Shown here piece by piece: positions 55,900 to 63,955 of a stretch of 64,000 nucleotides of DNA. This DNA is from Candidatus Heimdallarchaeota archaeon (GTDB taxonomy: Archaea > Asgardarchaeota > Heimdallarchaeia > Heimdallarchaeales > Heimdallarchaeaceae). The notes under the pieces were generated by a model. It made no database searches. It saw only the letters and a program-made list of their open reading frames with translations, and was not told the origin of the DNA. The stretch covers positions 1 through 64,000 of the forward strand of contig JAEOSZ010000011.1 in the NCBI GenBank assembly GCA_016840095.1, read 5' to 3'. A program made the translations under genes and the position numbers. Within the stretch, counting starts at the first letter, position 1, and each line of letters opens with the position of its first letter.

Positions 55900-58800
55900 A
55901 TGAAAAAAAAGGCAATTTTGGGTTCAGCCTTGTTGGGTTTGACAATTATCCTTCTTACAATGAGCGGGTCAGTGACTCAAGCTCAGATAATTTCACAAAA
56001 CACCACACTCGACGCTGATATTCTGAACCCTGTTTTTGTAGAAGAAATGCGAATAATCGCTGGTATAGATTCTGCTGCCGTTGTAGAACTGGACCTAATA
56101 GGAGGCGCCATGCCTGCAATAGATGCAAATCCTCTATTCAGCGAAGTGAAAAGTTGGGCTTTTGTTGCTTCAAACCAATCAGATTTTCAAGATTATATTT
56201 TAAGGAGACCTTTCAAATCTCCCGAAAATGCTACACTTTTATTAGAAATTGATGCATCTTTAGGAGTTGGAGGTAGTTTGGTTAGAGCAATTGAAATAGC
56301 TTTATTATTTAATGCAGCTTACGGAACAAATTTGATGTGGTCAAGAGCTGAAGGCTTACTTGGAAGTTATTTATACATATTTTCAGGGAGTATGCCAGAA
56401 ACCATATTCAATACATTGATTACAGAATTTCAAACAGACATTAGTAATGGATTTGTGTCCCTACTCGATCCAGTTGAAGTAACTGATTCTCCTGTAAAAG
56501 TAGCTTTTATGGGTAACATGAAAGTTGATGGAAAGCTGACAGCAGCTAGAGGAGTATATTATATTGATCCAGATGCAATTACTGGAGCTACTACATATAC
56601 ATTATCAACTGATAATATATTTGGAGAAAATGTGTGGCCAAGAATCGCACTACAACCAATATTCTCGGTTCTAAAATTCAGATTCCCATATACAATAAAT
56701 CCTCTAAGTATTACACCAGATCCAAATAACTTTGCTCCTCAAATAACAGGAAAAATGGATTGGGATCTAAATACACCTTGGTCACTACCAAAACTTGGAA
56801 GTAATTATGAAGTTGTATTTAACATTAATCACACAGCACTAGCATCATCTCCTAGAGTATCTGTAAATATGGCATATGATCAAGATTTACTAAATACTGC
56901 AGGAAGATTACAGATGGACTATGTGGTTTCGAATACTGGAACTGAAGATGCTGTAGATATTGAGATTAGTTATCCTCTAGGACCTGATTTCTTAGATTTC
57001 TTAGCTCAAAAACCAAAACTTTGGGATTTGAGAGATGATGTAACTATTGATGAAGGATATTCAAATGCGATTACAGGAACTATATTGATGACCTTTGAAG
57101 GAGAAATGTTCATTGATGAAGGTTTATATCCAGATATCATTTATGAACAAGAATTTCTAATTCTTGATGGATGGTATCAGAATAATACTGATATGTCTTA
57201 TATTGATATAAATCCTGCAAATACTATTCAACAAGTTAAGACTGATAGTATGTTCTATGATCTGGGAATACCAGGACAAACAGGCACAGTATCAACTTAT
57301 ATAAACTTTAATTCATCACTTGGATTACCTAATGCATTAGTTGATCAAGCTACTGCTTTCTTAGCACCAATAAGTATGTTTGATTATGAATTACATACAC
57401 TTGGTGATCTAATTGCTGACTATCAATTTGAACTAAAAGATGCAGTACAAGCTGCAGGAGATTATTTGTTCAATATACTGTACTCTGAACAAGACATCTT
57501 TACCCCTGATACTATGGATTTTGATTTCATTACTAAAGAAATTGGTAGAGTGGGATTAGAAGATAGTTATAATGAAACTTTTCTGAGTACAATAATTCCA
57601 TTATTACATCCCGGTGAATCAGTTAACGTAAGCTGGGCTCTAGATAACATTCCCTCTCAAGCTAATCATTATGGAATGATGGGTCTAGATGAAGTAAATG
57701 TTGGAGCAAGTTTTCCTGCTTTACAATTGACTACTGTCGATAAAACTGGTTATGATGTCTTACGATATCTATTTGGTTTAGGCGATGCAATCTTACCTCA
57801 TTTAGGTGATAGATTCAGTAGACCATTAAGCTACTATGAGCCTTGGACAAATACTTGGTTATCAACTGGTGCAAGATTTGCATATATGGATGCAGAAGGT
57901 TTTGAATACTATGGATTCAGCAATGGAATTAATCTCCAAATAGCAGATGATGAAGCTGTTCTTAATGTGCATGTTTCGTTAAATCAAACTGCATACTTAG
58001 TAGGAGATCCTGTTACTGTCTATTATACAATAGAAAACACTGGAAATCTTCCAGCTGAAGAAGTAATTCTTGCTCTATATCATGGGCGAATGGGACCTGA
58101 TTGGCAATTGGTAGATCCTGAATTATTCTGGGTTGATGAAATTGGAACAATTGCACCAGGTGCAATATATAACAGTCAAGCTGATGTTCTAGCTAATTCC
58201 TTCTTGGGAATACACCCTGTTTATGGTGTTGTTGGTTTCAAGAGTGATGTTGGACAAACCATTTTATCCGATGGAATAATTGAATTATCTCCAGGATCAC
58301 TTGGATTAACATCTATCTTTGCTGGAGCTGCAGAAACCTATCAAATAGTTGCTTCTAATATGGATTGGGGTTTGGTTTTACCAAAGACTCTAAATAGAAG
58401 ACCAGCATTCCCACAACCAATACTAGACATTGATGTAAGTGTTGAGTATATCATTCCAACAGATGCTCCTTGGGAATTAGAAATCACTATAACTGTAACA
58501 AATATTGGTGATGAAAGAACCCATATAACTGCAGTTCAATTTTACAATGCAACTGAGATGCAATTATTACGTAAAACTACAACTAAAGGACTGACTGCAA
58601 ATGAAACATATCTAGGTATAGGTGTCATCAGATTCAAAGGAATAACTCTCCTACCTGGAGAATCTGTCATATTTACAATGAGATGGATGTTCCTTACTAG
58701 CTATGGTTGTTATATTCCTGGTATCATAATCGTTTATGATAGTAGATTCAGAAGTGATCTTGCGGTCGATGGAATTATCGAAGCACCTGATGTAACAGAT

Positions 58801-59019
58801 GCGGCTTTATTAGCTGCACTAGATGGGTCAGCTCAAGAAGAAGAAGATTGGGAAGATTATGGACAATCGACACAAACTGGATCCTCAGCGGGAGCTGATG
58901 TTTTCACAGGTGGAACTCATACAAGAAGACTAGGATCTTATGACATAGTATTCTGGTCAATCAGTGCAATCTTCGTTACAGCAGTCGCTACCGGCACAAG
59001 AAAGAAACTTAAAAAATAA
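55900..59019 (+). CDS. Large surface/S-layer-like glycoprotein with CARDB/Ig-like domains and C-terminal TM anchor
   Basis: Signal peptide, repeated V.NTG/NIG..A Ig-like motifs, acidic composition, C-terminal hydrophobic helix followed by RKKLKK. Confidence 0.82.
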   Translation: MKKKAILGSALLGLTIILLTMSGSVTQAQIISQNTTLDADILNPVFVEEMRIIAGIDSAAVVELDLIGGAMPAIDANPLFSEVKSWAFVASNQSDFQDYILRRPFKSPENATLLLEIDASLGVGGSLVRAIEIALLFNAAYGTNLMWSRAEGLLGSYLYIFSGSMPETIFNTLITEFQTDISNGFVSLLDPVEVTDSPVKVAFMGNMKVDGKLTAARGVYYIDPDAITGATTYTLSTDNIFGENVWPRIALQPIFSVLKFRFPYTINPLSITPDPNNFAPQITGKMDWDLNTPWSLPKLGSNYEVVFNINHTALASSPRVSVNMAYDQDLLNTAGRLQMDYVVSNTGTEDAVDIEISYPLGPDFLDFLAQKPKLWDLRDDVTIDEGYSNAITGTILMTFEGEMFIDEGLYPDIIYEQEFLILDGWYQNNTDMSYIDINPANTIQQVKTDSMFYDLGIPGQTGTVSTYINFNSSLGLPNALVDQATAFLAPISMFDYELHTLGDLIADYQFELKDAVQAAGDYLFNILYSEQDIFTPDTMDFDFITKEIGRVGLEDSYNETFLSTIIPLLHPGESVNVSWALDNIPSQANHYGMMGLDEVNVGASFPALQLTTVDKTGYDVLRYLFGLGDAILPHLGDRFSRPLSYYEPWTNTWLSTGARFAYMDAEGFEYYGFSNGINLQIADDEAVLNVHVSLNQTAYLVGDPVTVYYTIENTGNLPAEEVILALYHGRMGPDWQLVDPELFWVDEIGTIAPGAIYNSQADVLANSFLGIHPVYGVVGFKSDVGQTILSDGIIELSPGSLGLTSIFAGAAETYQIVASNMDWGLVLPKTLNRRPAFPQPILDIDVSVEYIIPTDAPWELEITITVTNIGDERTHITAVQFYNATEMQLLRKTTTKGLTANETYLGIGVIRFKGITLLPGESVIFTMRWMFLTSYGCYIPGIIIVYDSRFRSDLAVDGIIEAPDVTDAALLAALDGSAQEEEDWEDYGQSTQTGSSAGADVFTGGTHTRRLGSYDIVFWSISAIFVTAVATGTRKKLKK

Positions 59020-59020
59020 T

Positions 59021-59047
59021 TTTCTTTTTCTTTTTTCTTTTATTTTT
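59021..59047 (+). terminator. Oligo-T archaeal terminator
   Basis: TTTCTTTTTCTTTTTTCTTTTATTTTT directly after the stop codon. Confidence 0.6.
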
Positions 59048-59107
59048 ACCCATGTAATAGCTTGTTTTAAATAGTGATTTGTCGCTAGATTCCAAGAGCG
59101 GAACTGA

Positions 59108-62098
59108 ATGACAATATCAGTTGAATCTAATTCAGATATGTACATCTTTGACAGCCTTATGCTATATAATTTTAAAATGCATAAGACTACAGATTTAAAG
59201 CTATCAGAAGTTCCAATTGTTGTCATTTCAGGCGCTAATGGGAGTGGAAAAACACAGATTTTGGAAGCTCTAATAATTGCAATAGGTCATGTCCCAAATA
59301 GAGTTTCATTGAGTACCTACAAAGAGGTTGTTGGTCCTTTTGACAAGTTCACTCAAATCAAACTTAAATTGAACAATCCACGATTAAGTGATAAAAGAGT
59401 TTTCACAACTTCGGACCCTGATTTAATACCGTATGTTGAAGAAGATTTTTTCATTGTTGATGTAAAAATAAATCATGATGGAAATATTAGAAGAAAGATA
59501 GTTGATAAGAGAGGAAAGGGAATAAACGTTACAAAGAAGCAAATCCAGATTCTAATGAGAAATATCGGAATATTTGACGATACCATGCTAAATTTTACTG
59601 AGGAAGGTTATCTTAGTTCTTTTGCCGATGGTTCCCCTCACAAGAAATTAGACAGTTTGCTAGTGGCAACAGGACTAAAAGAGATATTCAGTAGTTATAT
59701 CAACTCAAAGAAAAAAGTTCAAGAGAAGGAGAGAGAGTATTCACCTTTAGTAATGCAATTAGAAAAAGAGGAGAATAAATTAGAGAGACTCAGAGAGAAT
59801 TTTGATAGAATACAGAAAAAGAGAGAACTCATCGAAAAATATGATTTCCTTGAGAGGGAGTTATTCTGGTTTAATGCTATGGAAAGTCAGAAGCATTTAG
59901 AAGAATCAACTCAGAATCTTATTACTAAAAAGACTGAATTGGATGACATAGAAAAGAAGCTTGGTGCTTCTTTGATTGATCAAGAAAATCTTAGTGAAGA
60001 GGTAAAAAAAGTAGAGGAGTCTCTAGTTGATAGAAAGACCAAAATGAGAGAAATGTCTGACCAAAGAAATAGATTGGAAGGTCAGAAAGAAGAGAAAAAT
60101 AGAGCAGTAGTATCTTCAAAAAATCAGATAAGAAATATTAATCAGAAATTGAGTGAATTTGAGAATATTCAAACTGATGAGGGATTAACTCAAAAAAGAA
60201 ATTTGCAAAATCAACTGGATGATGTAAATAGAGAATTGTCTAGTCTGAACAGTGAACTACAAACTAGTCAGATAAATCTAAAAAACAAAGTTGTAGAAGA
60301 GGATAAAATTAAACAAAGAATTAACGAAAGATCTCAACTTTATGGAGAGTTATCCGATTATGAAAGAAAATTGATAAAGGACTGTATTTTATATAAAGAG
60401 AAAATTCAAAATTCAGATTTTAAGGATGAAATAATCGGACCAATTTACGAAATAATTTCGATAAAGAAAGGGTTCGAGAATTATACTGAAGTTGTAAAAA
60501 CATCTCTCGGAAGATCTCTTTTTGGATTTGTTGCTACTTCTCATAATGCATACAAAGAAGCAAAGCGAATCTATGATGAAGTTTTCCCCTCGTTTAAACC
60601 GAATTTCACAGTAGGGAGGGTATTAGAGGATGAAAAAGGTCCAAAACCTGATTACTTAACAAGCCAAATAATAGAAAATAAACCTGAAGGGATAATTGAT
60701 TTTGCAGTCAATTTAATTGAAGCTCCATTTCAAGTTAAGCTATATTTAGTTAAATTTGTAAGGATACTATTAGGTTCTCCATCATTACCTCCGAATCTCT
60801 TAACAGATTATGCAAAGCAATTCAAAACTAACATTCTGACAACTGATTGTAACAGTTACTATCTCTCTCAAGAAGCATTCTCAAGACCACCAAGAAGATA
60901 TAACTTAAAGTTGAGTTTAGATCTGAACAAATATCAGTCAATTGAAAGAATAAGAGAACAGCATCAATTAGTTCAATTTGATATCGAAAAGATAACAGAA
61001 GATAAAATCAGAATTACCAGAAGCTTAGCTGAATGTGAAGGTAATAAACGAGATTTAGAAACCCAATTGAAACCATGGAAAATGGGAGCTGACGAAATAG
61101 AGAATGAATTTTTAAGATTACAGCAAATCAGAACCGCTGCAGAATCCTTAGTAAGATCAGAAACTGAAAACCTTACTAAACTAGATACAGAAATTACTAA
61201 ACTTGCAGACAATATCATTGTAATTGAGAAAACTGTATCTGAAGAGCAGAAAAAATTCGATGTAGTAAGAAACAAGTTGAATAATTTAAATCAAGAAATC
61301 AAAGATTTTTCAGCTGAAAAAAATAAACTTATACGAATGATAGATTTTCTTGAAATAGAAGTATCTGATCTCAAAACAGCATTTGAAACACTAAATGAAC
61401 AAGCTGTTCAGAAAGGAGAACCTCCAGAAAATATCCGCTCTGATAAAGAGGAGATCTCCTCAGAATACAATAAAATTAAAGGACAATTAGAATTATTAGA
61501 TATTACCCCTGAAGTATCACAGGAAAGCATAGAAAAACAAGAACAACATGTCAATATCCTTCGTGATGAAGTGAAAAATACAGAAGTTCATTTGAATAAT
61601 CTGAAAGAAGATTTAGATAAAAGAATCAATGAGTGGGAAGGAGGACTTCACAATATTGTAGAACATTTGAATAAGATGTTGAGCTTGCTTCTTCAAGATA
61701 TCTTTGAGAATGTATCTATACAAATTCGAAATTATAATGATGAAAAAAATGCAGGGTTACATATTGAAGCAGAAACTAAAGGAGATAATAGAAAATATAG
61801 ACAACTCTCTGGGGGAGAAAAAACACTATTAGCTCAAGCGATAATTCTTGCGCTGCATATGATTAACCATTCTCCAATACATGCAATAGATGAGTTTACT
61901 CAAAAGCTTGATAAAAGGAATAAGGCTCTTGCATTTTCCATGGCTTTAGCAACATATAGAATTTCAAAAGAGAGTAGGATAATTACCCCTCAATTTATAC
62001 TTATAACACCCTCTCTCGATGATGTAGAACTCTCAAAAGAATTCGCTCATAAGGTTTTGATAGAGAGTAAAGTTAAGACTCCTGAGGTGAAAACTTGA
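59108..62098 (+). CDS. SMC-family ATPase, Smc5/6-related
   Basis: NFK.H, GANGSGKT, long coiled coil, central hinge (IIGPIYEII...), second coiled coil, LSGGEKT, AIDEFTQKLD, QFILITP. Confidence 0.9.
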   Translation: MTISVESNSDMYIFDSLMLYNFKMHKTTDLKLSEVPIVVISGANGSGKTQILEALIIAIGHVPNRVSLSTYKEVVGPFDKFTQIKLKLNNPRLSDKRVFTTSDPDLIPYVEEDFFIVDVKINHDGNIRRKIVDKRGKGINVTKKQIQILMRNIGIFDDTMLNFTEEGYLSSFADGSPHKKLDSLLVATGLKEIFSSYINSKKKVQEKEREYSPLVMQLEKEENKLERLRENFDRIQKKRELIEKYDFLERELFWFNAMESQKHLEESTQNLITKKTELDDIEKKLGASLIDQENLSEEVKKVEESLVDRKTKMREMSDQRNRLEGQKEEKNRAVVSSKNQIRNINQKLSEFENIQTDEGLTQKRNLQNQLDDVNRELSSLNSELQTSQINLKNKVVEEDKIKQRINERSQLYGELSDYERKLIKDCILYKEKIQNSDFKDEIIGPIYEIISIKKGFENYTEVVKTSLGRSLFGFVATSHNAYKEAKRIYDEVFPSFKPNFTVGRVLEDEKGPKPDYLTSQIIENKPEGIIDFAVNLIEAPFQVKLYLVKFVRILLGSPSLPPNLLTDYAKQFKTNILTTDCNSYYLSQEAFSRPPRRYNLKLSLDLNKYQSIERIREQHQLVQFDIEKITEDKIRITRSLAECEGNKRDLETQLKPWKMGADEIENEFLRLQQIRTAAESLVRSETENLTKLDTEITKLADNIIVIEKTVSEEQKKFDVVRNKLNNLNQEIKDFSAEKNKLIRMIDFLEIEVSDLKTAFETLNEQAVQKGEPPENIRSDKEEISSEYNKIKGQLELLDITPEVSQESIEKQEQHVNILRDEVKNTEVHLNNLKEDLDKRINEWEGGLHNIVEHLNKMLSLLLQDIFENVSIQIRNYNDEKNAGLHIEAETKGDNRKYRQLSGGEKTLLAQAIILALHMINHSPIHAIDEFTQKLDKRNKALAFSMALATYRISKESRIITPQFILITPSLDDVELSKEFAHKVLIESKVKTPEVKT

Positions 62099-62862
62099 CT
62101 GATCAAGATATAATTGATGATACTTCAGATATAATTTCAACCTATATAGAGGAGAATAGAGAATGGGTTGAGAATATATTTCAACTTGTTTTTGAGCTCA
62201 AGAGGAAATATGGTAAGTCAATAAGAAAGAAGGAAATTGTACAATTGATTGAATCTGAAGAGGATCGGTCCAAAGTTTCTGATGCTTATATATATTTGCA
62301 GAGTAAAAAAGAAAGTATTCTGGATTCAGCTCTTTATGAAGATTTCATCAAAATGAATGAATTAAGAGAAAATGATCTTTTAGAACAACTCCTTTATCCA
62401 CATGAAAGACTAAAAACTTTCGCAGATAAAGTAAAAAGTTTGTGTATTCCAATAACATATTTCTCAGGAACAACTAAAACATCCTATGAGGAACCTTTAA
62501 ACAATTTAACTGAAGAAGTAATAAATTTAGAATCAATGGAAGATATTAAGAATTTTTTGAATAAATATCAATCTTTCATGGAGCATCTATCGATAAATTT
62601 TCTAGATAAAGGTGACATCTTGAACATTGAAAATGAAATTAAGGAAAAGCTAGTAGGTAAGAAAATCAAGAAGAATAAGATGAACGAGCTCTTAACAACT
62701 TTAGAAGCTGAAGTTTTATCCAAATTAATAAGTGAAAAGAAAATTCAAGTGATTTTGAATGATGATGAACTAATTTTTCAAAACGAATTAGAAGAAGAAT
62801 CTGAAGTTATTTCAAGTTCAGTACTTCTCTCACCAAAAAATACGAATGAAGAAAGTGAATGA
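62095..62862 (+). CDS. Putative kleisin (ScpA/Nse4-like) subunit
   Basis: Overlaps the SMC stop codon; helical N-terminus; C-terminal winged-helix-like end (LSKLISEKKIQVILNDDELIF). The call rests mainly on context. Confidence 0.5.
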   Translation: MTDQDIIDDTSDIISTYIEENREWVENIFQLVFELKRKYGKSIRKKEIVQLIESEEDRSKVSDAYIYLQSKKESILDSALYEDFIKMNELRENDLLEQLLYPHERLKTFADKVKSLCIPITYFSGTTKTSYEEPLNNLTEEVINLESMEDIKNFLNKYQSFMEHLSINFLDKGDILNIENEIKEKLVGKKIKKNKMNELLTTLEAEVLSKLISEKKIQVILNDDELIFQNELEEESEVISSSVLLSPKNTNEESE

Positions 62863-63470
62863 TTATGGAAGAGAATCATCTGGAAGAGCCTATTGAAGTT
62901 AATGAGGTTGTAGAAGAAAATAATTTTCTACCTTCTTCTATATCAGATGAGGAAAAAGGAGAACTCTTTAGAGAACTTACAACAATTTTATCCAGAAAAT
63001 GGGTAAAAGAAAAAGTTACAGTATTTGGATGTTCAGAGCTTGATTTATTATTAGCAACTCGCTTCGATATCCAAACCTTGAGAGAAACAATTGATGAATA
63101 CAGATCATTTGTTCAGATCTTAGGTCTCAATGTCATTGAATATGATATGAATGGAGAAAAATGGTATTGTCTTAGATCTTCACATTACGCTCCATCCGAT
63201 TTACAATCAGCTGAATTGATTGTTTTAGGAACTATCATTGCTTATCTGGAAAGTGATAGAGATAAACCAATAACTACTGAAAGAATAAAAGAGAAATTAG
63301 TAATTACAGGAAAGATGAAAGAATATCTTGTAGAAAATAGTCTGAGGAGATTAACAAGGCTTGGGTATATTAAGAAAAAGCAAAGTGAGTGGGACTATAA
63401 CTACAGAACATTCATAGAATTTGGTGAAGATGAGAGGGAAAAAATCGTTGAGGAGTTCAGAAGGATTTGA
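62859..63470 (+). CDS. KITE (tandem winged-helix; Nse1/Nse3-MAGE/ScpB-like) subunit
   Basis: Two WH domains; ILGLNVIEY..WYCL, ELIVLGTII, LRRLTRLGYI..WDYNYRTFIEF. Confidence 0.72.
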   Translation: MIMEENHLEEPIEVNEVVEENNFLPSSISDEEKGELFRELTTILSRKWVKEKVTVFGCSELDLLLATRFDIQTLRETIDEYRSFVQILGLNVIEYDMNGEKWYCLRSSHYAPSDLQSAELIVLGTIIAYLESDRDKPITTERIKEKLVITGKMKEYLVENSLRRLTRLGYIKKKQSEWDYNYRTFIEFGEDEREKIVEEFRRI

Positions 63471-63922
63471 AGGGACAAGAAGCAATCTACTGCTATATCA
63501 GGTGTACTTTCTGTAATCAGATGAAAACTCTAAAAGATGCTGCTCTAGAAGGATGGGAAGTCTGCAACAGATGCCAGTTAGTTTTCTGTGATGAATGCAA
63601 AAAAGCTAATGAGAAAGAAGAATTATGTCCAGGATCTGTTTACACAACAAAACATTCAGCAAATTTTGACCTTCTTCCAGTTGAACAAATAATTGAAACT
63701 GCAAATAGCATTGAAAGGCAACCAAAGGAAAGCAAGTTTATATCAAAAATCTTCTTTGAAGATGAAAAGAAAAAAATTGAAGTCCTTAGAAGAAATAATA
63801 AGAAAAAAGATTCAGCTGATTTTAGTATTGTTAGATTTCGAGAAGAGCAATGGAGAAAATTTGGTACTGTTTTAGTTAAGAGGAAAGATGGTAAATTTCT
63901 AACTTGGGGTCAATTAGAATAA
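63467..63922 (+). CDS. RING-like Zn-finger protein in the SMC operon
   Basis: C13-x2-C-x16-C-x2-C-x4-C-x2-C-x9-C-x8-H; the TTG start overlaps the KITE stop. Confidence 0.72.
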   Translation: MKGQEAIYCYIRCTFCNQMKTLKDAALEGWEVCNRCQLVFCDECKKANEKEELCPGSVYTTKHSANFDLLPVEQIIETANSIERQPKESKFISKIFFEDEKKKIEVLRRNNKKKDSADFSIVRFREEQWRKFGTVLVKRKDGKFLTWGQLE

Positions 63923-63955
63923 GAAAAGAAAAATGAAAAAAGAAAAGGTAGGAAA

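Follow-up and report, generated by a model that had tools for sequence, protein, structure and literature searches.

Does an archaeal relative of SMC5/6 come with a ligase-like subunit of its own? To our knowledge, SMC5/6 is the least understood of the eukaryotic SMC complexes, and no other among them has ubiquitin and SUMO ligases as built-in subunits. The question is raised by four genes near the end of a 64,000-nucleotide (nt) stretch of Candidatus Heimdallarchaeota archaeon DNA (the window; positions 1 to 64,000 of contig JAEOSZ010000011.1, assembly GCA_016840095.1), which an earlier note had read as the operon of an Smc5/6-type complex made up of an SMC ATPase, a kleisin, a KITE and a RING-like zinc finger protein. 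On balance, we consider it probable that the operon encodes a second SMC complex, belonging to the SMC5/6-related archaeal branch, with the zinc protein as a dedicated E3-like accessory subunit. As for the fourth gene, it is a genuine partner, under constraint and conserved widely, whose product has a predicted RING-class fold, and it appears to be undescribed in the literature. The four open reading frames (ORFs; lengths in amino acids, aa) are the following.

59108-62098, + strand: gene 1, SMC ATPase (P0001), ORF of 996 aa
62095-62862, + strand: gene 2, kleisin candidate (P0002), ORF of 255 aa
62859-63470, + strand: gene 3, KITE candidate (P0003), ORF of 203 aa
63467-63922, + strand: gene 4, predicted RING-fold two-zinc finger protein (P0004), ORF of 151 aa

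Successive starts and stops share 4 nt, with TTGA at 62095, ATGA at 62859 and TTGA at 63467; both the coordinates and the junctions of this overlapping same-strand arrangement were confirmed. The TTG starts of genes 2 and 4 are needed, because initiation at the next in-frame methionine (residue 87 in gene 2 and residue 19 in gene 4) would drop conserved N-terminal parts, which in gene 4 include two zinc ligands.

Its sequence places gene 1 among the SMC ATPases, on the SMC5/6-related branch. P0001 matches Pfam SMC_N (2.3e-21) over residues 16-945, and its ATPase motifs are intact, with the Walker A motif GANGSGKT at 42, the LSGGE signature at 900 and the Walker B motif IDEF at 927. When a profile built from 15 family members was compared with the PDB, human Smc6 (161 bits) and yeast Smc6 (155 bits) came first, followed by prokaryotic Smc (101 bits), Smc4 (98 bits), Smc3 (91 bits), Smc5 (90 bits) and Rad50 (45 bits). 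Smc6 thus leads the ranking by about 55 bits, and there was no MukB or JetC chain among the 60 rows listed. As a control, we used the canonical Smc encoded by the window's own genome (code G000; 89% completeness, 7.8% contamination), which scored prokaryotic Smc at 203 bits, then Smc2, Smc4, Smc3 and Smc1, and had neither Smc5 nor Smc6 among its top 60 PDB matches. A quick maximum-likelihood tree of 41 sequences (LG+G4, short search), which held a single long-branch SMC5 from a bird and no SMC6 sequence, recovered the operon SMC family as monophyletic (SH-aLRT, a likelihood-ratio branch support, 100) and joined it with P0116 and the bird SMC5 (99), with the canonical SMCs in a separate clade (99) and Rad50 outside. 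In both the ranking and the tree, the SMC of SMC5/6-related type that the earlier note had proposed held up, the family falling neither with canonical Smc nor with Rad50. No Pfam SMC_hinge match was obtained for P0001 itself; P0037, which is 41% identical, is annotated with PF06470, and residues 444-595 of P0001 form a conserved block without coiled coil.

A Rad50/SbcC identity for gene 1 was considered and rejected: the P0001 sequence contains no CxxC zinc hook, the Rad50 score is far below that of Smc6, and a Rad50-like gene is present separately in G000, on contig C146. The genome also encodes, elsewhere, the canonical Smc with its SMC_hinge domain and a weak ScpA-like gene, so that the operon is the second SMC system of G000. 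The canonical Smc gene (its 3' part) and the ScpA-like gene are both found twice, on the near-identical short contigs C73 and C139 (L001 and L002); this duplication is probably strain heterogeneity in the bin. In genome G006, a 214-aa ORF (L042, 9136-9780, - strand) with 55% identity to residues 1-206 of P0001 sits upstream of an intact operon, with a 650-aa Ig-like ORF next; judged by its sequence, it looks like a duplicated fragment of the SMC N-terminal head.

For gene 2, we accept a kleisin architecture on the strength of the predicted structure. The AlphaFold2 (AF2) model of P0002 consists of a helical N-terminal domain at about residues 6-116 (predicted local distance difference test, pLDDT, 84-94), a low-confidence, disordered linker at 119-170 and a canonical C-terminal winged helix at 172-230 (pLDDT about 80). 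The top 30 of 350,542 chains in a Foldseek search included Nse4, Brn1 (three entries), CAP-H2 and RAD21, with Nse4 found as 7qcd_F at rank 2 and also as 7tve_G; none of the matches was significant, the kleisin chains all having E values of at least 0.18. The same Nse4 chain, 7qcd_F, was the sole two-domain match of P0002 in a wide search (Z 7.4 over 160 residues, root-mean-square deviation (rmsd) 22.9), the remaining list being dominated by generic three-helix bundles. Sequence-family membership, the other half of the kleisin claim, was not borne out: none of 12 gene-2 family members matched the ScpA, Nse4, MukF or Scc1 Pfam families at E <= 1, comparison of P0002 with the ScpA-like protein of G000 by hhalign gave a probability of 0.3, a PDB profile search with the family found nothing significant (best Nse1, 0.22), and no atlas neighbours of P0002 were returned.

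The leads for gene 3 are weak but point one way, and its sequence makes it a KITE candidate. P0003 has a weak Pfam match to MksE (0.004) and a winged-helix signal in residues 108-196. Within its family, SMC_Nse1 is matched weakly by 2 of 12 members (best 0.0021), ScpB weakly at 0.054, and MarR-type winged helices many times. The first named atlas neighbours of P0003 are MAGE (0.86) and DUF4194 (0.78), and a PDB profile search with the family returned nothing significant (best the HrcA winged helix, 0.068). Gene 3 directly follows the kleisin gene, which is the kite position in published operons, and the ratio of nonsynonymous to synonymous substitution rates (dN/dS) against its closest relative is 0.078. 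No member of the ScpB family was found in G000, at its 89% completeness. The earlier KITE assignment is thus backed by position and by these leads, at the level of a candidate.

What, then, is the fourth protein? Eight residues of P0004 (C13, C16, C33, C36, C41, C44, C54 and H63) are candidate zinc ligands, and among 13 orthologues from several families seven of them (C13, C33, C36, C41, C44, C54 and H63) are invariant, position 16 being Cys or His. Eight conserved ligands imply two zinc sites. W30 is conserved as well, as is a C-terminal block comprising E126, E127, W129 and G142. In the AF2 model, residues 5-80 are predicted with confidence (pLDDT 81-90). The top Foldseek rows for P0004 were RNF4, TRIM69, Ring1B, RNF20, Rad18 and Rbx1; VIA-align likewise placed RNF4 first (Z 5.7, rmsd 3.2-3.4, 61-63 residues aligned), followed by the Prp19 U-box, Ring1B, the CTLH/GID RINGs, APC11, c-Cbl and ZZ domains, with Nse2/Mms21 at Z 4.5-4.7. 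The uniformity of this list speaks for a RING/U-box-class fold of the model. Profile evidence points the same way: against the PDB, the gene-4 profile matched the RNF4 RING best (E 0.0011 for a tandem construct, 0.14 per domain) and then other RINGs, and single family members weakly matched IBR, FYVE, zf-RING_2, zf-C3HC4 and zf-RING_4. Taken together, these comparisons argue for a RING-class fold of the N-terminal domain, an assignment at the level of fold alone and not of family membership or catalysis.

The ligand spacing of gene-4 proteins is C-x2-[CH]-x16-C-x2-C-x4-C-x2-C-x9/11-C-x8/9-H, with ligands 1-6 resembling those of a PHD finger and an atypical final pair. It was compared with the canonical RING spacing, C-x2-C-x(9-39)-C-x(1-3)-H-x(2-3)-C-x2-C-x(4-48)-C-x2-C, from which it departs. 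The RING-like character suggested earlier therefore stands for the fold class alone: the spacing is not canonical, no curated RING family is reached, and the searches made do not bear out homology to either Nse1 or Nse2. The fold matches listed for P0004 did not include Nse1. A search of 1.84 billion representatives with the gene-4 profile (E <= 0.001) retrieved 71 relatives only, and eukaryotic Nse1 was not one of them, although distant homology could escape such a search. Public records label the protein 'hypothetical'.

The finger domain is not confined to gene-4 proteins. In P0084, P0085, P0089, P0095, P0096, P0097 and P0098, it is located C-terminally on coiled-coil proteins (240-360 aa) or on Ras-like GTPases, and this recurrence in other protein contexts marks the finger as a wider domain family. 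No KITE or kleisin similarity was seen in these longer finger-bearing proteins. A 2155-aa Ig-repeat protein, P0076, which was matched 12 times by the C-terminal motif, was judged spurious.

Whether gene 4 belongs with the SMC genes can be read from its distribution. In a scan of 400 Asgard genomes, the zinc protein was found in 68. With Asgard families coded f1, f2 and so on, it is present in 27 of 30 genomes of f1, 11 of 12 of f7, 19 of 19 of f12, 3 of 3 of f3 and 2 of 2 of f6, and in the single genome each of f2, f8 and f29 (1/1 in each case); it is absent from f4 (0 of 12), and f5 (22 genomes) and f20 (135 genomes) each yielded one weak match. On contigs long enough to show it, the genes follow the order SMC-kleisin-KITE-finger in f1, f2, f3, f6, f7, f8 and f12 and partly in f29, mostly with overlapping genes and with SMC identity as low as 26%. 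Since the same order recurs in eight Asgard families, we regard the four-gene arrangement as not due to chance; the synteny across Asgard genomes that the earlier note had asked about is thus extensive.

It is against this distribution that mere co-transcription, with gene 4 having no functional tie to the SMC complex, has to be judged. The binding evidence for gene 4 is solely a computational score, and a weak one, which favors such a view. On the other hand, gene 4 stays directly behind the KITE gene, often overlapping it, in all eight families at 22-57% identity, and its presence or absence matches that of the KITE genome by genome. Strong KITE matches fall in the same families as the finger and in almost the same set of genomes: in f1, KITE and finger are each found in 27 of 30 genomes, with the identical three genomes lacking both, and in f4 the KITE, like the finger, is found in 0 of 12. 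We regard mere co-transcription as the least credible of the explanations considered here.

Distant KITE relatives in f14 and f28 are found in SMC operons without the finger, which confines the finger to one subfamily of SMC operons. Two distant relatives of the operon, L105 (4070-7701, + strand) and L106 (4818-8851, - strand), from two Asgard families other than the eight above, have an SMC gene, a kleisin-sized ORF and a KITE gene and no zinc-finger gene. In L106, the kleisin-sized ORF comes after two adjacent ORFs of 407 and 475 aa, and in L105 the SMC gene comes after one of 459 aa; these extra ORFs may be SMC halves.

Another possibility is that the operon serves in defence against plasmids or viruses, as a system of the Wadjet/Mks or Lamassu type. 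In PADLOC, the SMC is matched best by LmuB (1.7e-21) and more weakly by JetC, the KITE candidate has its weak MksE and DUF4194 leads, and eukaryotic SMC5/6 restricts extrachromosomal DNA. A defence role is at odds, however, with the lack, both within the operon and close to it, of an effector of the JetD/TOPRIM or LmuA type, with the preference of the PDB ranking for Smc6, and with a pattern of inheritance in which the operon is found in nearly every genome of the families possessing it and its identities follow taxonomy. Its G+C content (0.315) is also close to that of the whole genome (0.332), and the genes around it have housekeeping and transport functions. We rate a defence system as quite improbable. 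Identity with Wadjet (JetABCD) in particular was rejected, as genes 2-4 have no PADLOC match and no nuclease is encoded among the neighbours, in agreement with the earlier statement that the operon has no JetD-type nuclease. What it shares with MksBEF, Wadjet JetABCD and Smc-ScpAB is the logic of SMC, kleisin and KITE in one operon; unlike them, it has no JetD nuclease and no ScpA/ScpB family membership, and its SMC ranks Smc6 over prokaryotic Smc.

The case for an E3-like subunit comes from sister lineages in which the finger gene adjoins genes for ubiquitin-like conjugation. In f7, the finger gene is followed by genes for a Prok-JAB protein (4.6e-9), a ThiF E1-like protein (1e-38), a protein of 103 aa with a terminal Gly and an E2-like protein. 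The latter shows a weak UQ_con match (0.004) and an HPR-x9-C motif. JAB and ThiF genes lie directly 3' of the finger gene in f8 and f29, and a JAB gene 3' of it in f6. In f12, the conjugation kit is divergent and upstream, together with a transglutaminase-like gene and a short second finger paralogue, which adjoins the E2-like gene. The small kit protein (L045, 9314-9625, + strand; L082, 5593-5913, - strand) is 103-106 aa long and, because it ends in ...VG or ...VGQ, would be a candidate ubiquitin-like modifier.

We propose that a homodimer of the 996-aa SMC ATPase would be closed by the kleisin, which in turn would carry a KITE dimer, and that the zinc protein would be a dedicated accessory subunit, probably docking on the kleisin/KITE module. 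By analogy with the sister lineages, it may serve as an E3-like adaptor that couples the SMC complex on DNA with ubiquitin-like conjugation; the homodimer is suggested by the single SMC gene, and the ligase role we infer from the sister-lineage operons. In the lineage of the window, the finger might work with the other E2 and E1 genes of the genome, or its part might be purely structural or regulatory. The cellular role of the complex would be chromosome maintenance or repair.

Several observations weigh against this proposal. Beside the operon in f1, f2 and f3, the families of the taxonomic order to which the window belongs, no kit was seen at the loci examined, and in G000 (at 89% completeness, with the queries used) no orthologue of the kit JAB or E2-like genes was found; on contigs C159, C118 and C49, the genome does have four UQ_con E2 genes, as well as ThiF and JAB-like ones. 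The ligand spacing is non-canonical for a RING (a central C-x2-C-x4-C and, in P0004, a terminal C-x8-H), and the hydrophobic and aromatic positions that we take to be E2-binding in canonical RINGs are not conserved in the gene-4 protein of the window's lineage. Genes 2, 3 and 4 reach no curated families, the C-terminal third of P0004 is modelled at low confidence, and all fold matches of P0004 are middling (Z <= 5.7; Foldseek E >= 0.15). Weak support for docking came from a predicted complex in which the zinc protein was scored as the partner of the kleisin and a pair of KITE chains. Its score was 0.54, against 0.22 for the best control, and replacing the kleisin brought it down to 0.22. At least 51% of the contacts agreed between runs, and the partner pLDDT was at least 54. 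Of 80 solved complexes, 58 pass the mark for weak support, and of 110 mismatched pairs 2 do; with scores of no more than 0.60, only 7 of the 80 complexes and both mismatches pass it. We read it as a hint that the zinc protein docks on the kleisin/KITE base.

The missing kit, the ligand spacing and the variable E2-contact positions would also fit a zinc protein that is a non-catalytic subunit, be it a structural clamp or a DNA-binding or protein-binding module of the kleisin/KITE base, in which case the adjacency to ubiquitin-like genes elsewhere would mean that the finger is a target or regulator of conjugation and not an E3. In f1-f3, strong purifying selection maintains the finger although no kit adjoins it (for the finger gene of this kit-less lineage, dN/dS against the closest relative is 0.055, which is our reason for speaking of such selection), and the cross-brace fingers ZZ, FYVE and TFIIH p44 are also among the gene-4 matches. 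Against a non-catalytic subunit stand the top structural matches, which are overwhelmingly E3-class RING and U-box domains, the location of the finger gene beside conjugation genes in five families (f6, f7, f8, f12 and f29) and the second finger paralogue of f12 next to an E2-like gene. We consider a non-catalytic subunit a serious contender, though clearly the less likely one, and prefer the second SMC complex with an E3-like accessory subunit.

Comparison with eukaryotic Smc5/6, which is made up of Smc5-Smc6, the Nse4 kleisin, the KITEs Nse1 and Nse3, the variant RING of Nse1 and the SP-RING of Nse2, shows how far the likeness goes. The operon SMC is nearest Smc6, the operon likewise combines a kleisin with a KITE, here a candidate, and a RING-class zinc domain goes with the KITE/kleisin module; in the sister lineages, the link to ubiquitin-like conjugation is shared too. 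Unlike eukaryotic Smc5/6, the operon has a single SMC gene and a single KITE gene. Unlike in Nse1, where KITE winged helices and a C-terminal variant RING share one polypeptide, the RING-fold domain is separate from the KITE in every locus examined and never fused to it, and no Nse1-like KITE-RING fusion was found among the longer finger-bearing proteins or the loci examined. The SP-RING of Nse2/Mms21, a protein bound to the Smc5 arm, has a single zinc site, whereas the eight ligands of the zinc protein imply two, and the structural match between them is limited to the Z of 4.5-4.7 given above. The relation of the zinc protein to Nse1 and Nse2 is a likeness of class; homology is no part of the finding.

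Among archaeal proteins, the nearest characterised RING is, as far as a comparison by description only can tell, srfp (small RING finger protein) of Caldiarchaeum subterraneum, a proven E3 in an E1/E2/RING ubiquitylation operon. Hennell James et al. 2017 (PMC5654768) found that it modified Rad50, an SMC-like protein, in vitro. Like the zinc protein, srfp is a small archaeal protein of RING class that stands alone, and its gene has E1-like, E2-like and JAB/Rpn11 genes for neighbours, as the finger gene does in the sister lineages. They differ in that srfp is a RING-H2 protein with canonical spacing in a ubiquitin operon, whereas the zinc protein departs from that spacing, carries a further motif at its C terminus and is encoded in an SMC operon that has no adjoining kit in G000.

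Part of the arrangement has already been published. Two kinds of SMC-kleisin-kite operons, one of them related to SMC5/6, have been described from TACK and Asgard archaea by van Hooff, Raas, Tromer and Eme (bioRxiv 10.1101/2024.01.07.573240), who describe three subunits, do not use the word 'zinc' in the main text and hold that archaeal kites lack the RING of Nse1, which they call a eukaryotic innovation. The present operon resembles theirs in the order SMC, kleisin and Nse1/3-like kite, in forming a second complex beside canonical Smc-ScpA and in having an SMC nearest SMC5/6; it differs in the separate RING-fold gene that follows the kite gene in eight Asgard families. Full-text literature searches found no paper describing a zinc-finger or RING gene in archaeal SMC operons. 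Of the four-part arrangement singled out earlier as worth testing for novelty, only the fourth gene is thus new, since the SMC-kleisin-KITE part is known from TACK and Asgard archaea.

The operon is flanked on its 5' side by two signals, both of which were read in the sequence as the earlier note had indicated.

59020-59048, + strand: T-rich tract, 3' of the stop of the upstream CARDB-domain gene
59065-59073, + strand: TATA-like box TTTTAAATA, 35 nt 5' of the SMC ATG

The sequence suggests that the TATA-like box is used as the promoter of the operon, and the T-rich tract is likely an archaeal terminator insulating it. At the other end, the next gene, an ABC permease fusion 34 bp away, is convergent, for which reason we regard the operon as self-contained and ending at 63922. 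No oligo-T terminator was seen on the + strand after the operon; the gap between operon and permease gene (window 63923-63955) is A-rich on that strand, so the oligo-T run serves the convergent permease gene and not the operon. The contig continues past the window, to 91.5 kb. Upstream, at window 55900-59019 (+ strand), lies a gene for a 1039-aa protein with a CARDB domain, which is probably a surface protein and appears unrelated to the SMC operon. Public records assign close homologues of the operon SMC to Heimdallarchaeaceae, and DNA of the window is present in marine sediment metagenome runs; a look-up of RNA runs for it returned none.

Outside the window, contig C45 carries a transglutaminase-like gene of 533 aa (70295-71896, corresponding to L011, 12296-13897, - strand). 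Its product is 26-28% identical to the transglutaminase-like proteins encoded near the SMC operon in f7 and f12. The f7 and f12 genes come paired with a short second zinc-finger paralogue, and such a paralogue is absent upstream of the C45 gene.

In the published view, archaea gave the SMC-kleisin-kite core and eukaryotes added the RING. With a RING-fold gene that in eight Asgard families stays tied to the kite gene, and in five of them lies within sets of E1, E2 and JAB genes, the origin of the RING becomes a question that can be tested. The proteins concerned are small, prokaryotic and co-encoded, and would offer a minimal system for studying the contribution of a ligase module to a motor of SMC5/6 type; G000 represents the kit-less form and is less informative in this respect than loci of the f7 or f12 type. 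A stronger claim, which we hold to be rather unlikely as it stands, is that the zinc protein truly works as an E3-like subunit within a complex of SMC5/6 type in archaea. If it were true, the coupling of SMC5/6 to ubiquitin- and SUMO-type ligases (the Nse1 RING and Nse2) would predate eukaryotes, and Nse1 could derive from the fusion of a kite gene with a RING-fold gene that already lay 3' of it in the operon.

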